The notes: generated by a model not told the origin, from the sequence alone. 33,051 nt of DNA from a virus (IMGVR_UViG_3300002091_000070:1-33051), one strand, 5' to 3'; positions 7,989 to 19,891 are shown, numbered from the stretch's first letter. A program made the numbers and translations.

Positions 7989-8076
7989 TTATTTGATGTA
8001 ATCGGGAATGAATACCGACAAGGGTAGCACGTTGCAAATACTGCAATTTATAAGGGTTCGAATCCCTTAATGACTA
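7987..8076 (+). ncRNA. tRNA-like element (non-canonical D and anticodon arms)
   Basis: Acceptor stem AGTTATT/AATGACT; T-arm AAGGG-TTCGAAT-CCCTT; TTGCA/TGCAA stem; extra TCGG/CCGA hairpin in D-loop. Confidence 0.6.
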
Positions 8077-8079
8077 ATT

Positions 8080-8106
8080 AAACCACTCTTTTAGGGTGGT
8101 TTTTTT
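8080..8106 (+). terminator. Intrinsic terminator ending late/lysis transcript
   Basis: AAACCACTC/GGGTGGTTT stem followed by T-run. Confidence 0.8.
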
Positions 8107-8163
8107 ATATCTATTTACGTATAAAATCAAGATTTATAAGGCTTTTATATTCATTTACGTATA
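8103..8163. repeat. Two 21-bp direct repeats, 40-bp period (TTTTATATnnATTTACGTATA)
   Basis: 8103-8123 and 8143-8163; each contains the palindrome TACGTA. Confidence 0.7.
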
Positions 8164-8742: not shown

Positions 8743-9915
8743 ATGACTAAAATAGAAATTAAAAATATTTTTGGAGATGTCCTATTTACTTACGAAGCGG
8801 AAAATGCAACTATAAAAGATGCAGTTGAAAAAGCAGTTGAAGATAAAATTCCTTTGCGTTCGGCTGATTTGAGTTCGGCTGATTTGCGTTCGGCTAATTT
8901 GAGTTCGGCTGATTTGCATTTGGCTAATTTGAGTTCGGCTAATTTGAGTTTGGCTAATTTGAGTTCGGCTGATTTGCATTTGGCTAATTTGCGTTCGGCT
9001 AATTTGAGTTTGGCTGATTTGCATTTGGCTAATTTGCGTTCGGCTAATTTGAGTTTGGCTAATTTGAGTTCGGCTGATTTGAGTTGGGCTGATTTGCGTT
9101 CGGCTAATTTGAGTTCGGCTAATTTGCGTTCGGCTAATTTGCGTTCGGCTTATTTGAGTTCGGCTAATTTGCGTTCGGCTAATTTGAGTTCGGCTGATTT
9201 GCATTTGGCTAATTTGCGTTTGGCTAATTTGAGTTTGGCTAATTTGAGTTCGGCTGATTTGCGTTCGGCTAATTTGAGTTCGGCTTATTTGAGTTCGGCT
9301 AATTTGAGTTCGGCTAATTTGAGTTCGGCTAATTTGCGTTCGGCTAATTTGCGTTCGGCTTATTTGAGTTGGGCTGATTTGAGTTCGGCTAATTTGCGTT
9401 CGGCTGATTTGAGTTCGGCTGATTTGAGTTCGGCTAATTTGAGTTCGGCTAATTTGCATTTGGCTTATTTGAGTTTGGCTAATTTGAGTTCGGCTTATTT
9501 GAGTTGGGCTGATTTGAGTTCGGCTAATTTGCGTTCGGCTGATTTGAGTTCGGCTGATTTGAGTTCGGCTAATTTGAGTTCGGCTAATTTGAGTTCGGCT
9601 GATTTGAGTTCGGCTAATTTGAGTTCGGCTAATTTGAGTTTGGCTAATTTGCGTTCGGCTAATTTGAGTTCGGCTAATTTGAGTTTGGCTAAAAACAAAG
9701 AAACTGCATATTTACCCTTATTTTGTAAATGGGATTTTTCAATTTTAGGAGATAAAATACAGATAGGATGTGAAAAAAGAACTATTGAAAATTGGGATTT
9801 ATTTTTTGCAAGTAATGAAGAATTAAGTACTAAAAGAGGTACAGAAGAATTTAAACAAATTCAAGCGGTTTATAATGCTTGTAAAGCATATTTATTAACT
9901 TTAAATCAAGAATAA
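8743..9915 (+). CDS. Pentapeptide repeat protein (A[N/D/Y]L[S/R/H][S/L/W])
   Basis: 55 consecutive pentapeptides between short N- and C-terminal domains (IQIGCE...W). Confidence 0.9.
   Translation: MTKIEIKNIFGDVLFTYEAENATIKDAVEKAVEDKIPLRSADLSSADLRSANLSSADLHLANLSSANLSLANLSSADLHLANLRSANLSLADLHLANLRSANLSLANLSSADLSWADLRSANLSSANLRSANLRSAYLSSANLRSANLSSADLHLANLRLANLSLANLSSADLRSANLSSAYLSSANLSSANLSSANLRSANLRSAYLSWADLSSANLRSADLSSADLSSANLSSANLHLAYLSLANLSSAYLSWADLSSANLRSADLSSADLSSANLSSANLSSADLSSANLSSANLSLANLRSANLSSANLSLAKNKETAYLPLFCKWDFSILGDKIQIGCEKRTIENWDLFFASNEELSTKRGTEEFKQIQAVYNACKAYLLTLNQE
8854..9690 (+). repeat. 15-bp tandem minisatellite (GCTAATTTGAGTTCG consensus), about 55 units
   Basis: 8863-9687 = 825 nt = 55 units with no indels. 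Confidence 0.95.
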
Positions 9916-11363: not shown

Positions 11364-11394
11364 TTTGCATTTAATTAATAAAGTATTATATTTG
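11364..11394 (+). promoter_or_regulatory. Bacteroidota promoter
   Basis: TTTG 11364-11367, 19-nt spacer, TATATTTG 11387-11394. Confidence 0.8.
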
Positions 11395-11403
11395 CAAAAC
11401 AAA

Positions 11404-11480
11404 CGACAAGTAAGGCGGTCGAACGAAATTAACAAATCCCTCTATTTATTCCAGCCTTACGGAATTTTTAGAGGGTATTT
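11404..11480 (+). ncRNA. Structured 5' leader, kissing-loop copy A
   Basis: Hairpin CGAC/GTCG with loop GTAAGGC; hairpin CCCTCTA..ATTCC/GGAAT..TAGAGGG with loop GCCTTAC. Confidence 0.7.
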
Positions 11481-11494
11481 ATTTAAAAAAAAAA

Positions 11495-11662
11495 ATGGAA
11501 ACATTAGTAAAAATTATTGAAGAAAAAATGTTATTAATTGAGCAGTTAGAGGCGCAATTAGTAAAAGCCAAAGAAGAAAGCAAAAAGCAAACAGAGAGTA
11601 TGCTTTACTGGTACGAAAAATTTACAGAATTATCAACTTCAAAAACTTTAGAAAATGAGTAA
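11495..11662 (+). CDS. Small coiled-coil protein (55 aa; not in ORF track)
   Basis: METLVKIIEEKMLLIEQLEAQLVKAKEESKK...; first ATG after leader, preceded by an A-run. Confidence 0.6.
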   Translation: METLVKIIEEKMLLIEQLEAQLVKAKEESKKQTESMLYWYEKFTELSTSKTLENE

Positions 11663-12092
11663 AGATTTATTTTTAATGATGAGAGAGCAGGAAATTCAAA
11701 CGAGCAATTTCCTGCCAAACAAAAAAGAGATACAATTTAGTAGTAAAAAATTTATAACTGATGTATTAGAGACAGGTGAAACCGATAAATTTGAGTTATT
11801 GGCACAGGCTAAAAGAATGCTCGAAGCATTGGATGTAATTAATACCGAACTTTTAAAAGTAATACCTCAAGAGAATTTTGAAGCATACGGACTTAAAGGA
11901 ACTTATAGAAGTGGAGGAGATACGGTTAATTACTCCGAGGATGCAATTTACACGCAGTTAAAAGCTGATTTAGATGCAAGGGCAGAATTATTAAAACTTG
12001 CTTTAAAACAACCTGTAATCGATGCCTACGGTAATGATGTCCCAAGAGTTTCGACAACACCAAGAAAAAGCAGTTTAGCAATATCATTTTAA
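11655..12092 (+). CDS. Hypothetical protein (recombination/replication module)
   Basis: ORF track; context upstream of SSB-like gene. Confidence 0.65.
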   Translation: MSKDLFLMMREQEIQTSNFLPNKKEIQFSSKKFITDVLETGETDKFELLAQAKRMLEALDVINTELLKVIPQENFEAYGLKGTYRSGGDTVNYSEDAIYTQLKADLDARAELLKLALKQPVIDAYGNDVPRVSTTPRKSSLAISF

Positions 12093-12103
12093 AAATAAAA
12101 ATT

Positions 12104-12274
12104 ATGAAATTATACACAGATAGCAAAATTGAAATAAGTAAATTTATTGAACAAAATAGAACGATGCTTATAAATTCAAGAAAAGAGGCAGAGGAGATAA
12201 CAAAATATAGAGGTTATTTTTATGAAATTTACGATGAAAATAAAAACTTTCTTTGTTACGGAATTCCAAAATAA
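12104..12274 (+). CDS. Hypothetical protein (56 aa; not in ORF track)
   Basis: MKLYTDSKIEISKFIEQ...FLCYGIPK; A-rich start context. Confidence 0.5.
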   Translation: MKLYTDSKIEISKFIEQNRTMLINSRKEAEEITKYRGYFYEIYDENKNFLCYGIPK

Positions 12275-12278
12275 TAAC

Positions 12279-12286
12279 TATATTTG
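12279..12286 (+). promoter_or_regulatory. Bacteroidota -7 promoter element for SSB-like gene
   Basis: TATATTTG; TTTG at 12252-12255. Confidence 0.65.
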
Positions 12287-12301
12287 CAACAACATAATAA
12301 C

Positions 12302-12334
12302 GAGGGTAAGGCTTTCGCCCTTTCATTGAAAGCC
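12302..12334 (+). ncRNA. H-type pseudoknot in the 5' leader of SSB-like gene
   Basis: Stem 1 GAGGGT/GCCCTT; loop GGCTTTC (12310-12316) pairs with GAAAGCC (12328-12334). Confidence 0.55.
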
Positions 12335-12350
12335 ATAAAAAATAAATATT

Positions 12351-13037
12351 ATGAGTACAACTTCAAACCGCAGACAAGCATTTGCAAAACCGCAAAGCAA
12401 CCCAGCAACAAAATTTATCGATTGGAAATCTAACGATAAATGTTTTTCTTACTACGACAAAGAAAATCAAATAAACGTTTCAATTCCTTTACCTTTTAAA
12501 TTTTTAGTCCTGGATGAACTTCATACCATTAAGGGATGGAACGATGCAACTTCAAGCGGTATTTATTCCAACGAAGTAAAATTTATTTCAAAAGAACCAT
12601 TAACAGTTAAACCATTTAAAGGTAATGAAATTGCTAAAGGTCTTTATAAAGATATTAAAGAAAAAATTGTAGCCGCTGGTGGCCACTATACTAAAAGCAT
12701 TTACATAATGCTCGAGGATGGCTCACTTGCAAACATACAACTAAAAGGTAGCGCAGTACAAAAATGGGGCGAATTTACGCAAAAAACACGTAACAGATTA
12801 CCTGATGAGTGGATAGTTGTTAAAAGTGCTTTAGAAGGTAAAAAAGGAGCAGTTAAATTCTTTACTCCAGAGTTTACATTTTTACAATCTTTGAACGATG
12901 ATGAATGTAATTTAGCAGATGAGGCTTTTAATACTTTGGAAACTTATTTAAAAGCCTATTTAATAAAAGTCGATGCAATAGTTGAAGATATTGATCCTAT
13001 TGGAAACGATGCAGATGGTGACGATTTAGAGTTTTAA
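12351..13037 (+). CDS. Putative single-stranded DNA-binding protein
   Basis: Aromatic/basic beta-rich core; acidic tail ending in Phe (DADGDDLEF) as in T7 gp2.5 and bacterial SSBs; upstream of primase-helicase. Confidence 0.55.
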   Translation: MSTTSNRRQAFAKPQSNPATKFIDWKSNDKCFSYYDKENQINVSIPLPFKFLVLDELHTIKGWNDATSSGIYSNEVKFISKEPLTVKPFKGNEIAKGLYKDIKEKIVAAGGHYTKSIYIMLEDGSLANIQLKGSAVQKWGEFTQKTRNRLPDEWIVVKSALEGKKGAVKFFTPEFTFLQSLNDDECNLADEAFNTLETYLKAYLIKVDAIVEDIDPIGNDADGDDLEF

Positions 13038-13061
13038 TAATTTGTTTATTTTATTTGGTTA

Positions 13062-13090
13062 AAACCCTGCTATAATGGCAGGGTTTGTTT
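13062..13090 (+). terminator. Intrinsic terminator
   Basis: AAACCCTGC/GCAGGGTTT stem then T-rich tail. Confidence 0.75.
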
Positions 13091-13284
13091 ATTTTCAATA
13101 CTAAAGTATTGAACTTAAATGACCGTTTTTATATTTATGCAACGCAAAATGACCTCTTTCTATATACCCTATAGACCTAATAAATATTTTTTTAGGGGGG
13201 TGGTAACTAATTGAGAATTTTATCGTTTTATCGTTGCGTTTTAAATTTTTTAAAGTTTTTGTTAGTTTATTAAAATAATATTTT

Positions 13285-13292
13285 TATATTTG
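13285..13292 (+). promoter_or_regulatory. Bacteroidota -7 promoter element for primase-helicase
   Basis: TATATTTG; TTTG at 13258-13261. Confidence 0.7.
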
Positions 13293-13296
13293 TACA

Positions 13297-13372
13297 CTCT
13301 CTGAATTTAAGGAAAATATTATATTAATCCCATAATGAAACAGAAGTCAGAGAGCTGTGGATTTATGGGATT
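13297..13372 (+). ncRNA. Structured 5' leader, pseudoknot copy B
   Basis: CTCTCTGA (13297-13304) complementary to loop TCAGAGAG (13347-13354) of hairpin AATCCCATAA..ACAG/CTGT..TTATGGGATT. Confidence 0.7.
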
Positions 13373-13392
13373 TCTTATTAAAAAAAAAATAA

Positions 13393-15738
13393 ATGGAAGT
13401 AACTGTATTTAAAGACTTATTTAAGTCTAAAGACGTGCCTTTTCACGTTCCATTAGAAAAAATTATTAAAAGAATTCAAACAGGATATTCTAAAGATATT
13501 ATTGAAAAAATAAGATTATCGGAAACTAAAATTGAAAGGGATTTTATAAAAAAATCTTTGCCCTGCATTTTATTTAATGGAACTTTTAGCGAAAGAAACT
13601 CAAATAGTTTAATTCAGCACTCTGGTTTAATGATTGTGGATTTTGACAAATATAAAACTGATGTTGAGATGTTTGATAACTTGCACGAACTTAAAAAAAA
13701 CAAACATTTTCTTTTATTATTTATAAGCCCCAGTGGTAATGGAATTAAAGGCGTTGTAAAAGTATCTAACGAATTAGATAAAATAACACACCCCAAAATA
13801 TTTACTCAATTTCAAGAAGATTTTAAGTTTGATTATTGGGATGCTTCGAATTCAAATGTGGATCGAGTTTGTTTTGAGAGTTATGATCCTGATATTTATG
13901 TGAATTATAACTCTGTAATTTATGAGCCAATTATTAGCGATAAAGGATATAGCGTACAGGAAAAATCGCCATTAATACCAATTACAGATGAGGATAAAAT
14001 CATTGATAAAATAATGAATTTTAATTGGGGTAAAGGGTTTAATGATGGAGAGCGAAATTCTTTTATATTTGATATTGCTGGGGCATTTTGCGAATATGGA
14101 GTTAGTCAAAGCACTGCCGAGGGATATATTTTAAATAACGTTGTAATTGGTGATTTTTCGGAAAGAGAAGCAACCACAACTATTAAAAGCGCATATAAAA
14201 AAAGAAATTTTGATAGTAAGTTTTTTGAAGACTACACCAAAATAGAAAAAATAAAAACCGATATTAAAAAGGGTAAAAAAGAAGTTACTAAAAAATACGG
14301 CATTTCGGAGGATGTTTTTGATGAAATAAAGGAAGAACAAGAACACGACGACTTTTGGTTTTTAAACGAAAAAAATAAAGTCCAAGTGGATTTATTAAAA
14401 TATAAATTATTTTTAGAGCGCAACGGGTTTAAAAAATTTTTTCCTGCAGATTGTCAAAAACCTACTTGGGTAAAAATTATATCAAATAAAGTAACTGAAA
14501 CCTCTATTGAAAAAATAAAAGATTTTGTTTTAGATTTTTTATTAAAAAGAAAAGAAATTGAAACTTGGAAATATTGTGCTAATTATCCGAATTTATTTTC
14601 AGATAAAATGTTGTTAATGCTGGATAGTGTTGAATTAATGATGTTGCGAGATACTAAATTTAAGAGTTATTTTGCTTTTAAAAATGGAATTTTAGAAGTA
14701 GATAAAGACAAATATAAATTAATTGATTTTATTGATGTTCACGGGTACATTTGGGAATCACAAATAATTCAAAGAGATTGGGATGGATTGGAGTTTTTTG
14801 AAAATGAATACCAACAATTTGTAAAAAATATATCCAACAATGAGCCTATAGCAATTGAGTGCTCTATTGGTTATTTATTATCTACTTATAAGAACAAAAT
14901 GAACAATAAGGCGATAATTTTAAATGATGAACTTATTAGCACCAACCCAGAGGGGGGGACTGGAAAAGGTTTGTTTGTACAAGGATTGCGACAAATTAGA
15001 AAAGTATCAATTTTAGATGGTAAAACTTTTGATGATAAAAAATCTTTCCCATACCAAACTGTTAGCCCAGAAACTCAAATATTAGTATTTGATGATGTTT
15101 TAAAGAACTTTAATTTTGAAAATAAATTTAGTTTAGTAACTGAGGGGATGACTTTAGAGCGTAAAAATAAGGATGCTATCAAATTAAAAGTAGAGGATAG
15201 CCCCAAGATGGTTATTTCAACAAATTACGCAATTAAAGGAGAGGGAAATTCGCACGATAGAAGAAGACACGAATTAGAAATAGCGCAATATTACGGCAAG
15301 AATTTAACTCCTTACGATGAATTCGGAAAACAATTATTTGACGATTGGGAGTTAGAAGACTTTAAGAAGTTTGATAATTATATGATTTATTGTTTAATGG
15401 CTTATTTAAAAAATGGGTTAATAAAACAAAATTCTAAAAATTTAAAATTGCGTAAATTCATAGCAGAAACGCAAATGGAGTTTTACGAATTTGCAGAAGA
15501 TATGGAGTTACTGCCAAGAAACAAAAGAAATAATAAAACAGAACTTTATAATAAATTTATTGACGAATATCAAGATTTTAAAAAATGGCTACAGGTTAAA
15601 ACCTTTGTTAAGTGGATTGATAAATATTGTAAATATAAAGAATTTGAATTTTTAGAGGGCAACACTCAAGGCAACCGTTGGTTTGAAATAGTGGATAAGA
15701 ATTTAGAAACGGAAGAAGATAACGATATAATTTTTTAG
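13393..15738 (+). CDS. Primase-helicase (BT4734/VirE N-terminal-like primase, PriCT-like domain, SF3-type helicase)
   Basis: LPCILFNGTF, HSGLMIVDFD, FISPSGNGIK, DRVCFESYDP; GERN; Walker A EGGTGKG, Walker B LVFDD, sensor ISTN. Confidence 0.8.
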   Translation: MEVTVFKDLFKSKDVPFHVPLEKIIKRIQTGYSKDIIEKIRLSETKIERDFIKKSLPCILFNGTFSERNSNSLIQHSGLMIVDFDKYKTDVEMFDNLHELKKNKHFLLLFISPSGNGIKGVVKVSNELDKITHPKIFTQFQEDFKFDYWDASNSNVDRVCFESYDPDIYVNYNSVIYEPIISDKGYSVQEKSPLIPITDEDKIIDKIMNFNWGKGFNDGERNSFIFDIAGAFCEYGVSQSTAEGYILNNVVIGDFSEREATTTIKSAYKKRNFDSKFFEDYTKIEKIKTDIKKGKKEVTKKYGISEDVFDEIKEEQEHDDFWFLNEKNKVQVDLLKYKLFLERNGFKKFFPADCQKPTWVKIISNKVTETSIEKIKDFVLDFLLKRKEIETWKYCANYPNLFSDKMLLMLDSVELMMLRDTKFKSYFAFKNGILEVDKDKYKLIDFIDVHGYIWESQIIQRDWDGLEFFENEYQQFVKNISNNEPIAIECSIGYLLSTYKNKMNNKAIILNDELISTNPEGGTGKGLFVQGLRQIRKVSILDGKTFDDKKSFPYQTVSPETQILVFDDVLKNFNFENKFSLVTEGMTLERKNKDAIKLKVEDSPKMVISTNYAIKGEGNSHDRRRHELEIAQYYGKNLTPYDEFGKQLFDDWELEDFKKFDNYMIYCLMAYLKNGLIKQNSKNLKLRKFIAETQMEFYEFAEDMELLPRNKRNNKTELYNKFIDEYQDFKKWLQVKTFVKWIDKYCKYKEFEFLEGNTQGNRWFEIVDKNLETEEDNDIIF

Positions 15739-15740
15739 TT

Positions 15741-15848
15741 ATGAGAGTTTTAAGAGATTATCAAATAAGAATTTCAACTGATGCTGCCGAAACTCTCCAA
15801 CGTAAAAGGTTAGTTTGTTTTTTTATGGAGGTTTTATTTTTTTATTAA
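15741..15848 (+). pseudogene. Orphaned original 5' end of the SF2 helicase gene
   Basis: MRVLRDYQIRISTDAAETLQRKRLVCFFMEV matches 18 of the first 31 aa of the 16457 helicase and breaks off just before Walker A. Confidence 0.8.
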
Positions 15849-15859
15849 AATATAATTTG

Positions 15860-15867
15860 TATATTTG
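15860..15867 (+). promoter_or_regulatory. Bacteroidota -7 promoter element of the HNH cassette
   Basis: TATATTTG in AT-rich context. Confidence 0.65.
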
Positions 15868-15872
15868 CAGAA

Positions 15873-15951
15873 GTAGAGTCGTCGCTACAATAACAATATT
15901 ATAAAATTCCAACACTGATAAAGACGACGACCTTTTGATGTGTTGGTTTTT
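15873..15951 (+). ncRNA. Structured 5' leader, kissing-loop copy C
   Basis: Hairpin GTAG/CTAC with loop GTCGTCG; hairpin CCAACAC..AAAG/CTTT..GTGTTGG with loop CGACGAC; T-run follows. Confidence 0.7.
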
Positions 15952-15957
15952 ACATTT

Positions 15958-16464
15958 ATGGAAGTTTGGAAAAAAATTGAAGGTTTTGAAAATTATGAAG
16001 TTTCTAATTATGGAAACGTAAAAAGATTAGATAGTTTAGTTTATCAATTAGGTAAATTTTATAAATACAAAGGTCGTATTTTAAAACAAGAAACAACAAG
16101 AGGATATAAAAGAGTTACTTTAAGTAAATTAAATATTACTAAAAGATTTTTAGTTCATAGATTAGTTTCTGTTTATTTTTTAGAAAATACAAATGAAAAA
16201 CCTTGCGTCAATCATATTGATGGTAATAGATTAAATAATAATTATTTAAATTTAGAATGGGTAACGTATTCAGAAAATGAAAAACATTCCTATAATATTT
16301 TAGGTAAAATAAATCCAATTAGGAAACTTACAAGTGAACAAGCTAATTATGTAAAAATAATAGGTATTAAAGGCAAAAAAGGAAATATAAAAGAATTAGC
16401 AAATAATTATAATGTTGATGTTTCTACTATTTATAATATATTAAATAATAAGTATTATGTTTAA
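15958..16464 (+). CDS. NUMOD4-HNH homing endonuclease with C-terminal HTH; start likely ATG 15958
   Basis: MEVWKKIEGFENYEVSNYG (NUMOD4); VHRLV...VNHIDGNRLNN...NLEWVT..EN (HNH); KELANNYNVDVSTIYNI (HTH). Confidence 0.9.
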   Translation: MEVWKKIEGFENYEVSNYGNVKRLDSLVYQLGKFYKYKGRILKQETTRGYKRVTLSKLNITKRFLVHRLVSVYFLENTNEKPCVNHIDGNRLNNNYLNLEWVTYSENEKHSYNILGKINPIRKLTSEQANYVKIIGIKGKKGNIKELANNYNVDVSTIYNILNNKYYV

Positions 16465-17755
16465 AATTAGAGATTATCAGGTACGAATAGCGAATAATGC
16501 TACTGAAATTTTAGAAAGAAAAAAATTAGTTTGCATTTTTGCCGAAGTCCGTTGTGGTAAAACTATAATGTCTTTAGAAACTTGTAAAAAGGTAAATGCT
16601 AAAACAGTTTTATTTATTACAAAAATTAAAGCGTTTTCAAGCGTTACAGATGATTACTATAATTTCGGTTACTCTAATAAATTTGAGTTAACAGTTATCA
16701 ATAGAGAGAGTTTGCACAAAGTAATTACAAATGATTTCGATGTAGTTATAATTGATGAAGTACACGGTTACGCATCCTATCCGAAACCGAGTAAATTCCA
16801 TAAGGATATTAAACAACGCTTTGGTAATTTACCTATGATATTATTATCAGGTACACCAACTCCAGAGAGTTACTCGCAATACTATCATATTTTTAATCTA
16901 TCCAATTACTCACCATTTAAACACGCAAATTTTTATAAATGGGCCAATGATTACGTAGATATTAAATTGAAATATTTAGGTTACGCACAAGTCAAAGATT
17001 ATAGCAACGCAAGAAAAAAAGACTTTTGGCATCATATACGTTACTATATTTTAACTTTTACACAAGCCGAGGCAGGGTTTACTACTTCGGTTAACGAAAT
17101 GTTGTTGGAGTGCGAGATGAAACCTATTACTTATAAAATTATCGACAAACTTAAAAAGGATTTAGTTGTTACCTCATCCACTACAAAAAAGCAAATAATA
17201 GCCGATACAGGGGTGAAGTTACAGCAGAAAATACACCAACTTTCAAGCGGAACTATTAAATTTGAAGATGGATCAATACAAGTAATTGATGACAGCAAAG
17301 CACAATTTATAAAAGAGAAGTTTGCAGGAGTTAAGATAGGGATATTTTATAATTTTGTTGCTGAATTACAAATGTTAAGTCAAGTTTTTGGAGCAGAAAA
17401 CTTGACAACTGACTTACAAGAATTTAATACAACCGATAAAAATATTGCTTTGCAGATTGTAAGCGGTAGGGAGGGAATAAGTTTAAAAGCAGCGGAGCAT
17501 TTAGTATTTTTTAATATTGCTTTTTCGGCTGTTAGTTACTTTCAAGCAAAAGACCGACTTACAACTATGGAGCGCAAAGAAAATACTATTTTTTGGATAT
17601 TCTCAAAGGGTGGAATTGAAGAAAAGATATACAAATCGGTGCAAGGTAAAAAAGATTATACACTTTCAACATTTAAAAAAGACTATGGAATTAGAACAAC
17701 AGATACAAAAGAGAATAACAACCAAATTAGAGCAAGAAGGTTACTTCGTACTTAA
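16457..17755 (+). CDS. Superfamily 2 (SNF2/DExH-like) helicase
   Basis: Q-motif RDYQ, RCGKT, IIDEVH, LSGTPT, GREGISL, QAKDRL. Confidence 0.85.
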   Translation: MFKIRDYQVRIANNATEILERKKLVCIFAEVRCGKTIMSLETCKKVNAKTVLFITKIKAFSSVTDDYYNFGYSNKFELTVINRESLHKVITNDFDVVIIDEVHGYASYPKPSKFHKDIKQRFGNLPMILLSGTPTPESYSQYYHIFNLSNYSPFKHANFYKWANDYVDIKLKYLGYAQVKDYSNARKKDFWHHIRYYILTFTQAEAGFTTSVNEMLLECEMKPITYKIIDKLKKDLVVTSSTTKKQIIADTGVKLQQKIHQLSSGTIKFEDGSIQVIDDSKAQFIKEKFAGVKIGIFYNFVAELQMLSQVFGAENLTTDLQEFNTTDKNIALQIVSGREGISLKAAEHLVFFNIAFSAVSYFQAKDRLTTMERKENTIFWIFSKGGIEEKIYKSVQGKKDYTLSTFKKDYGIRTTDTKENNNQIRARRLLRT

Positions 17756-18610: not shown

Positions 18611-18713
18611 ACCTATCGTAAGAATTAAAAGAGTAATGAATTTTTATTACAATAGAGGCATCAATTCCGAGAGAGTAAATAATTTATACCGTAAAATAAT
18701 ATGCAAAGAATAA
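18591..18713 (+). CDS. Small basic protein (40 aa)
   Basis: MKIQRFKPIVRIKRVMNFYYNRGINSERVNNLYRKIICKE; overlaps both neighbours. Confidence 0.5.
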   Translation: MKIQRFKPIVRIKRVMNFYYNRGINSERVNNLYRKIICKE

Positions 18714-19891
18714 AATTAAATGAAATTAAATTAAATCCGAATAACCCAAGGTTAATAAAGGATGATAAATTTAAAAAGTTAGTCCAGTCTATTAAAGACT
18801 TTCCCGAAATGCTCGATATTAGGCCTATTGTAGTTAATAAAGATATGATTATTTTAGGCGGTAATATGCGATACAAGGCCTGCAAAGAAGCTGGATTAAA
18901 AGAGATACCAGTAATAGTTACAGATTTAAGCGAGTAACAACAAAGAGAGTTTTTAATTAAAGATAACATAAGCAGCGGCGAGTGGGATTGGGAAGTATTA
19001 GCAAATGAATGGAACGCAGAAGAATTAGATGCGTGGGGGTTAGACTTACCAGTTGATTTTAATACCGAAGTATTAGAAGCCGAAGAAGATGACTTTGAAG
19101 TCCCTGAAGGCGGAATTGAAACGGATATTGTACTTGGAGATTTATTTGAGATTGGTGAGCATCGTCTTATATGTGGAGACAGTACACAAACCGATACATT
19201 TGAAAAATTAATGAATGGGCATCTTGCGGATTTAGTTATAACAGATCCGCCTTATAACGTTGCTTACGAGGGTAAAACAAAAGACAAGCTAAAAATTGAT
19301 AATGATAATATGTCAAATGGAGATTTTTATCAATTTCTTTATGATTTTTACACTGCTCTTGGAGCTTATACAAAAAAAGGAGGGTCTTGGTATGTTTGGC
19401 ACGCTGATAGCGAAGGTGCAAACTTTAGACTTGCAATGGCCAATGCTGGGATAATGGTAAAACAATGCCTTATATGGGTAAAAAATATCATGGTAATGGG
19501 AAGACAAGATTATCAATGGAAACACGAACCTTGCCTTTATGGATGGAAAGAGGGTGCTTCTCACGGATGGTATTCTGACAGAAAACAAACAACAGTTTTA
19601 AACTTTGATAGACCTTCAAGAAATGCTGAACACCCAACAATGAAACCTGTTATATTGTTTTCATATCAAATAGAAAATAGCAGTAAGCAAGGAGATATTG
19701 TAGCAGATGCATTTGCAGGAAGCGGAACTACAATGGTGGCTTGTCAACAATTAAATAGAAAGGCTTATGTTGTAGAGTTTGATCCTAAATATTGCCAAGT
19801 AATAATTGACCGAATGATTAAACTTAATCCAACAATAGAAGTAAAACGAAATGGTATAAAATATGAAAGTAATACAATCACAACAGAATAA
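18701..19891 (+). pseudogene. ParB-like N-domain fused to N4/N6 DNA methyltransferase, interrupted by in-frame TAA 18935-18937
   Basis: NPNNPR..RPIVV..GGNMR (ParB); frame continues DLSE*QQREFLIKDN...HRLICGDS into DPPY, HPTMKP, DAFAGSGTT; 18701 and 19211 ORFs share a frame with no other stop. Confidence 0.8.

Follow-up and report, generated by a model that had tools for sequence, protein, structure and literature searches.

Promoter-linked leader RNAs with a predicted loop-loop pairing of variable sequence in a probable flavobacterial phage and its relatives

The window analyzed here is the whole of a 33,051-nucleotide stretch of viral DNA (IMGVR_UViG_3300002091_000070:1-33051), a 33 kb phage record that contains genes for sheath, baseplate, portal and terminase. 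The host is likely a flavobacterium, because homologs of the phage primase occur in two Flavobacteriaceae MAGs (and in one short contig from another bin) and because one of the three short leaders described here, leader C, has 80–90% matches in 34 records of cultured Flavobacterium phages, including an 84.5% match located before an endonuclease gene.

All three leaders lie on the plus strand behind a predicted Bacteroidota sigma-A −7 box, at 11387–11394 (copy A), 13285–13292 (copy B) and 15860–15867 (copy C). With this box at −12 to −5 (PMC9723704), transcription is predicted from the sequence to start at about 11399, at 13297 and at about 15872, which places each start at, or just 5' of, the first structured base and not downstream of the 5' pairing segment. 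A TTG at −33 spacing is present upstream of copy A and absent from copy C. Leader A (11404–11475) consists of a 5' hairpin, P1 (11404–11421), a linker and a long hairpin, P2 (11438–11475), with a T-rich tail reaching to the ATG at 11495; the segment at 11410–11416 in P1 is complementary to a loop partner at 11454–11460 in P2. Leader C (15873–15946) is likewise built of P1 (15873–15888), a linker and P2 (15909–15946), followed by five T and the ATG at 15958, and its segment at 15878–15884 in P1 is complementary to 15925–15931 in the P2 loop. Copy B lacks the 4-bp 5' hairpin of copies A and C: the segment of leader B (13297–13369) spans 13297–13304, begins at the predicted first base and is followed by a linker, P2 (13329–13369, with the loop partner at 13347–13354) and a tail to the ATG at 13393. 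In all three leaders the partner lies within the apical loop of a hairpin built in two parts. The outermost G-C pair of this hairpin (11438/11475, 13329/13369 and 15909/15946) is 19, 23 and 11 nt from the ATG in A, B and C, respectively.

The three leaders were first recognized in a preliminary description of this DNA, and its box, segment and partner coordinates all proved correct on re-check. The AAT(T)CC word that it placed at the end of the linker is present, as the foot of the long hairpin, but is not general in the family examined below. The U-rich tract reported behind the stem is indeed T-rich, but modestly so (T makes up 6, 5 and 5 of the 8 nt 3' of the stem in A, B and C), and a simple terminator scan of the window listed none of the three leaders. 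Taken by itself, the box is not enriched over chance in the window (124 matches with one mismatch versus 103 ± 11); among the 75 TAnnTTTG sites on both strands, a GC-rich complement of at least 7 nt is found only at A, B and C.

The genes behind the leaders had been described as replication-type, which holds only for the gene directly behind leader B. Leader B precedes a primase/helicase-type protein of 781 aa with BT4734-like_N and PriCT_1 domains (13393–15738, plus strand), and a predicted compact intrinsic terminator (13062–13086, plus strand) after the upstream SSB-like gene sets its promoter apart from that gene. Behind leader A are two plus-strand ORFs (11495–12092) of 55 aa (11495–11662) and 145 aa (11655–12092) that belong to no known family, and behind leader C is a NUMOD4-HNH endonuclease (15958–16464, plus strand) that is followed by an SF2 helicase (16457–17755). 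The leader genes are DNA-handling in a wide sense, selfish nucleases and methylases included. Between the primase and leader C lies a 35-codon stub (15741–15848, plus strand) that resembles the N-terminus of the helicase, and in many relatives the helicase follows directly after the primase, which suggests that leader C and the NUMOD4-HNH gene form a cassette inserted at the helicase start, with the stub left behind and a second start at 16457. An HNH gene stands immediately before the helicase in seven other contigs.

Other parts of the window hold features of their own. At 18701–19891, a ParB-like ORF and a DNA methyltransferase ORF match phrog_498 in order (profile positions 35–112 and 218–434), and the TAA at 18935–18937 that ends the ParB-like ORF suggests either a single fusion gene that has been interrupted or an error in the sequence. 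A pentapeptide-repeat protein of 390 aa (8743–9915) is encoded by a long 15-bp tandem array of which the opposite strand is also open. In the intergenic region 7990–8110, a T-arm-like hairpin (8052–8068), which gives a weak match to a tmRNA end (E = 1.4), is followed by a compact terminator (8080–8102) and may represent a tRNA-like RNA or a remnant of one.

For comparison, 215 viral loci were collected by way of four window proteins; some of these loci overlap and one contig is nearly identical to the window. We ran a box-anchored descriptor of the whole layout on the window together with the first 117 of these loci, which yielded 160 matches (155 on the coding strand, 52 distinct segments) among 3183 boxes; only 2 of 700 shuffled leaders passed it. 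A promoter-blind scan gave 152 unique coding-strand matches, 139 of which have a TAnnTTTG box within 25 nt (background 3.2%), and 40 shuffled loci yielded 2 matches versus 51 in the real sequences. We also selected leaders by their downstream gene rather than by structure, counting only box-bearing upstream regions. The kiss (the pairing of segment and loop) was found in 59 of 66 box-bearing leaders of primase homologs (106 upstream regions), in all 17 of HNH homologs (20 regions) and in 15 of 19 of homologs of the 145-aa ORF (93 regions), and in none of the box-bearing leaders of SSB-like (0/8) and helicase (0/10) genes. Of the seven primase leaders that failed, six can be seen by eye to have a 7-bp match that contains just three G-C pairs.

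Covariation was assessed with a covariance model, R1, that contains the two hairpins only and leaves out the kiss pairs. R1 gave 98 matches in 99 sources, all 98 on the coding strand, with copies A (E = 0.001) and B (E = 0.00019) among them. All 67 unique non-seed matches pair over at least 6 bp with their own loop, and 59 over at least 7 bp, versus 21 of 4140 pairings with a different loop. Homologous leaders do show covariation, which the preliminary description had noted among the copies of one genome. R1 leans towards its seed families, and the fairer tests of presence are its non-seed matches, the gene-based selection and the homologous leaders of the SSB-like gene described below. In the seed alignment, all 7 kiss pairs change on both sides; its 19 rows were chosen for having the kiss, and this count, like that from 29 rows given below for a second element, describes variation and does not test presence. 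These results support a real, strand-specific and promoter-linked RNA structure. Among the 347 boxes of the cultured Flavobacterium phage mumin6-1, two (at 11666 and 12701 of MN812220.1) belong to copies of the element, one of which shares the code of copy C; the genus of this phage is described as lytic (PMC7077304).

On the host side, in narrow tests, R1 matched neither of the two MAGs with a primase homolog and just one among 151 genomes from that order, with only 27 candidates scored in each. By eye this single match has the hairpin but no kiss. The exact copy-C pattern, also a narrow test, was found in none of 401 genomes of the phylum.

A relaxed catalog comprised 196 unique elements in 180 of 219 sequences. 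Removing 25 elements whose span was overlong or whose stem was followed by fewer than four T left 171 unique elements, which form 68 clusters at 80% and have 79 different pairing codes, none of them self-complementary. In 49 of the 68 clusters the segment lies some bases inside the transcript in the loop of a 5' hairpin; the other 19 (~28%) lack this hairpin, and in such forms the segment begins at the predicted first base (offsets 3–5). The loop comprises 8 nt in 89 of 139 elements, with an unpaired A most often first, a size that, from known kissing geometry, would fit a 7-bp kiss with one bridging base. No base of the loops or the inner loop is invariant across subfamilies; the most conserved loop position reaches 36 of 62 (58%), and some subfamilies repeatedly show inner loops of the tandem G-A type. 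A and U make up 86% of the linker, which averages 20.6 nt (mostly 15–25 nt). The longest linkers contain an inner hairpin, suggesting that the unpaired length of the linker is limited. Extra A/U hairpins of this kind are seen in linkers of 29–37 nt at L005 9882, L125 3158, L129 5208, L004 2903 and L029 7099 (locus and position). In L180, L008, L156 and L200, two same-subfamily leaders share a genome, and their kisses differ at one or two base pairs, with compensation. The TTG at −33 accompanies 36 of the 68 clusters versus 25% of 2085 other boxes.

Across the family, 161 elements with an ORF precede 33 gene clusters. When one member of each was examined with Pfam, these included two primase types, helicases, HNH, GIY-YIG, methylases, DUF6291 and DUF3310, 21 of the 33 had no family and none was a transporter. 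The same code precedes different genes, up to 23 codes precede one gene and identical codes occur in unrelated phages. The first two of these observations indicate that the leader is a portable unit.

Although the leaders lie near replication genes, it is scarcely credible that the layout reflects a DNA-level structure, a target for a counter-transcript or chance. In pT181-type antisense attenuators a counter-transcript arises from an opposite promoter, but TAnnTTTG boxes on the opposite strand are present at only 7 of the 68 clusters versus a background of 20% and thus are not enriched. Structures at the DNA level would not account for the strand asymmetry (among 193 unfiltered elements, coding-strand stability of the hairpin exceeds that of the opposite strand in 165 and falls below it in 25) or for the many G-U pairs (118 of 1789), and the rarity of shuffled leaders with the layout argues against chance.

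The position of the structure between promoter and gene raises the question of what it controls. Behind the stem, the 193 unfiltered elements have on average 5.5 T in 8 nt, versus 2.5 at a like distance in 1015 other leaders; 81% have a T-rich tail (at least 5 of 8 T) and 53% an unbroken run of four T beginning no more than 3 nt from the stem. In most elements the ATG is 10–24 nt 3' of the stem, and in some the first ORF is 47–79 nt away. We favor, with slightly better than even confidence, the reading that the leader is an attenuator that needs no ligand, the kiss and the closing of a weak predicted terminator being alternatives in competition. The excess of T behind the stem and the greater stability of the hairpin on the coding strand both support an attenuator, as does the guanidine-IV riboswitch (GGAM-1), in which the same topology gives kiss-dependent antitermination: the proposal there is that the long-range kiss strains the linker and thereby keeps the outer pairs of the terminator from forming (PMC7736828, PMC11611296). 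That only 53% of tails contain a four-T run and that A, B and C escape a simple terminator scan argue against it.

The interrupted tails, the failure of A, B and C to be listed as compact terminators and the closeness of most start codons to the stem would also suit control of translation alone: the hairpin would not terminate, and the kiss, by opening or fixing the foot of the hairpin, would determine how accessible the start codon is in a host that does not use Shine-Dalgarno pairing. We consider this unlikely: the tail is T-rich where other leaders are A-rich, and a first ORF 47–79 nt away is difficult to reconcile with it.

Under the attenuator reading, the unit would consist of a predicted host-type promoter and a leader of 70–100 bases, portable between genes. 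Polymerase would start at the predicted box, and the 5' segment would be transcribed first and then wait until the hairpin loop clears the polymerase, by our estimate some ten bases before the T-tract. The emerged loop could then pair with the segment during transcription, and the kiss, acting through a taut A/U linker as in the guanidine-IV analogy, would keep the foot of the predicted terminator open, such that only some polymerases would read into the genes behind the leader. The opened stem may also free the ribosome landing zone, since the ATG lies just 10–24 nt behind it. The simplest input to shift this balance would be kinetic (polymerase speed, Mg2+ or temperature) and would set a level of read-through.

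The layout, its covariation, its strand preference, its link to the box, the T-rich tail and the portability between genes are seen directly; that polymerase starts at the box and terminates at the hairpin, that the kiss forms and that it competes with the stem through the linker are inferred. Linker length does not correlate with helical span (rho = −0.07, p = 0.55, 68 clusters), and since the ratio of span to linker reach is, as a rough estimate, only ~0.6, the kiss and the closed stem may coexist. A promoter with a fixed leak would also be a roundabout device unless modulated, and no regulatory input was found, which likewise weighs against an attenuator.

A closed, kissed fold could instead be a shape that is read by a protein or by RNA polymerase, with one factor, such as a phage antiterminator, serving all codes. 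The put-like RNAs, which act on the polymerase itself, offer a parallel. One fold with free sequence before 33 gene clusters is what such recognition would predict, the span and linker permit a compact fold, and the tandem G-A type inner loops of some subfamilies also speak for it. Nevertheless, no base of the loops or inner loop is invariant across subfamilies and we recognized no candidate regulator among the 41 window proteins scanned, and we regard this reading as very doubtful. Still more improbable is that the kiss simply tucks away the 5' end and stabilizes the mRNA or a short RNA against nucleases, with no switch. The forms without a 5' hairpin, in which the segment starts at the predicted first base, would suit such protection (copy B at 13297 is an example), but in 49 of 68 clusters the segment lies in a hairpin loop some bases inside, and the T-tail would go unexplained.

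The preliminary description proposed that distinct loops keep the copies from cross-pairing. This is true in the window, where duplex energies are −9 to −11 kcal/mol for a segment with its own loop and −1.6 or weaker for cross-pairs, but selection for it finds no significant support. Across loci, no cross-pairing of 7 bp or more occurs in 146 co-resident pairs; comparison of this result with a 6% null was set aside because that null mixes in orthologous copies. A context-matched test found no cross-match in 89 co-resident pairs versus 1.3 expected (P ~ 0.24).

Separation of the codes would be expected if the free loop of terminated leaders captured new 5' segments of the same code in trans and caused more termination, making each leader a timer or a sensor of genome dose. 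Each leader does contain both the target and an antisense loop, no core is self-complementary, and among co-resident pairs with similar stems none of 6 shares a code versus 21–60% between loci (p ~ 0.04, by hand). The CI RNA of phage P4 offers a precedent (PMC4825925), although here target and regulator would reside in one short leader. With gene context fixed, however, the lack of cross-matches carries little weight; closeness favors pairing in cis, a second copy of the target 3' of the leaders is absent, identical codes recur in unrelated phages, and the cultured carriers are described only as lytic (PMC7077304), which leaves no role in lysogen immunity there. We consider such feedback quite improbable. 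A repeat of the copy A segment at 12306 was considered as a trans target and rejected: it belongs to the pseudoknot of the SSB-like gene, the letters of which vary independently, and we regard the match as a coincidence. A combined form, a self-contained, loop-coded feedback switch in which a code of 7–9 bases determines in cis if polymerase gets past the terminator and released short RNAs compete in trans for that code, so that each promoter unit would count its own transcripts on a separate channel, is likewise an unlikely proposal. If true, it would mean that selfish nuclease cassettes carry their own channel and that lytic phages have a class of attenuator that is protein-free, ligand-free and freely recodable.

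If instead the attenuator proper is correct, competition between kiss and terminator, so far seen in one riboswitch class, would be a general, ligand-free means of expression control in a large group of Bacteroidota phages. Dozens of natural codes would then offer a ready collection of orthogonal RNA parts for use in Bacteroidota, as well as a clean setting in which to study how a loop-loop contact blocks termination, and a cultured pair for such tests exists in Flavobacterium sp. LMO6 and phage mumin6-1.

The locus also has a second covarying RNA, a separate plus-strand element at 12279–12350. Here a predicted −7 box (12279–12286) is followed by an H-type pseudoknot (12302–12334), an A/U-rich stretch and the ATG, at 12351, of an unannotated OB-fold protein of 228 aa with an acidic tail (12351–13037, plus strand). 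The pseudoknot is found in 85 of 93 homologous leaders, with 16 and 39 variants of its two stems, but in none of 465 shuffles and in few control leaders (1 of 110 for helicase, 3 of 87 for the 145-aa ORF), and it lies 14–22 nt from the ATG. In 29 rows chosen for structure, 10 of 12 pairs change on both sides. [quoted passage not shown] Foldseek gave no match at E ≤ 0.001, and a profile search of PDB sequences and the search for families were empty. Its only GenBank phage matches are hypothetical proteins in 55 mycobacteriophage records (29–35% identity), and in its Atlas clusters 17–32% of members carry the name Pam3_Gp34.

This second element resembles the translational operator of gene 32 in T4 and RB69, described as a compact pseudoknot and an unstructured A/U-rich stretch before the start of the SSB gene (PMC535899). 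The two differ in the gap from pseudoknot to ATG (14–22 nt here versus more than 40) and in that the 228-aa protein has no sequence match to gp32. By analogy, the 228-aa protein may repress its own synthesis as the gene 32 protein does.

The leaders themselves had not been recognized as a named RNA family. In support of this, Rfam 15 gave no match on any leader, either in the window (E ≤ 5) or in 10 loci (E ≤ 2). The P4 CI RNA immunity system, as described in PMC4825925, is similar in that a promoter-proximal segment is complementary to a later part of the leader and transcription stops prematurely before replication genes. Unlike P4, however, the phages examined here have no second target downstream of any leader, a pairing of only 7–9 bp and several independent units per genome, and the cultured carriers are described as lytic.

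Members of the family have probably been seen before without being named. Fremin et al. 2023 (PMC10690425) list, among anonymous IMG/VR candidates, DNAVirus_8377, 4940, 773 and 1203, under separate numbers and not as one family; these are freshwater candidates, 67–105 nt long and no more than 25 bp away from NUMOD4/HNH/GIY-YIG or VirE_N/PriCT_1 genes. DNAVirus_8377 (105 nt, 88 sequences, mostly freshwater, Bacteroidetes hosts) probably corresponds to leader C, with agreement in length, host, habitat and gene context, and 4940 and 773 probably correspond to the primase leaders, to judge from their descriptions. RNIE called DNAVirus_8377 a terminator, which supports an attenuator if the inferred identity is correct, and 4940, 773 and 1203 were RNIE-negative, which argues against one. 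The main text of that paper does not use the word 'kissing' or discuss these four candidates. Our literature search, which included word searches of PMC2864571 and PMC5737381, returned no description of the kiss in the text covered, and a bioRxiv preprint (10.64898/2026.07.01.735769) concerns other motifs, as far as its accessible text shows.

The closest known system is guanidine-IV with its variant Gd4v (PMC7736828, PMC9788692, PMC11611296), in which, according to the published descriptions, a loop-loop pseudoknot also joins two hairpins, the 3' one being terminator-like. Pairing of a 5' hairpin loop with a terminator-like 3' hairpin is likewise what we found in the 49 clusters that have a 5' hairpin, although the terminator likeness of the leaders is partial (a tail with at least 5 of 8 T in 81%, an unbroken four-T run in 53%, A, B and C unlisted by the simple scan). 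Unlike guanidine-IV, the leaders occur in phages, are fused to the start site, lack the 5' hairpin in ~28% of clusters and have no known ligand. They also have no conserved loop bases, with 79 codes and a best position at 58%, and neither sugE, another transporter nor a guanidine gene is among the 33 gene clusters (Pfam, one member each). Because of these last two differences, the leaders are not members of guanidine-IV. The claim of novelty therefore holds for the name but not for the topology, which is known, and the leaders represent a conserved, uncharacterized cis-RNA family of Bacteroidota phages that is new in its sequence-free form.
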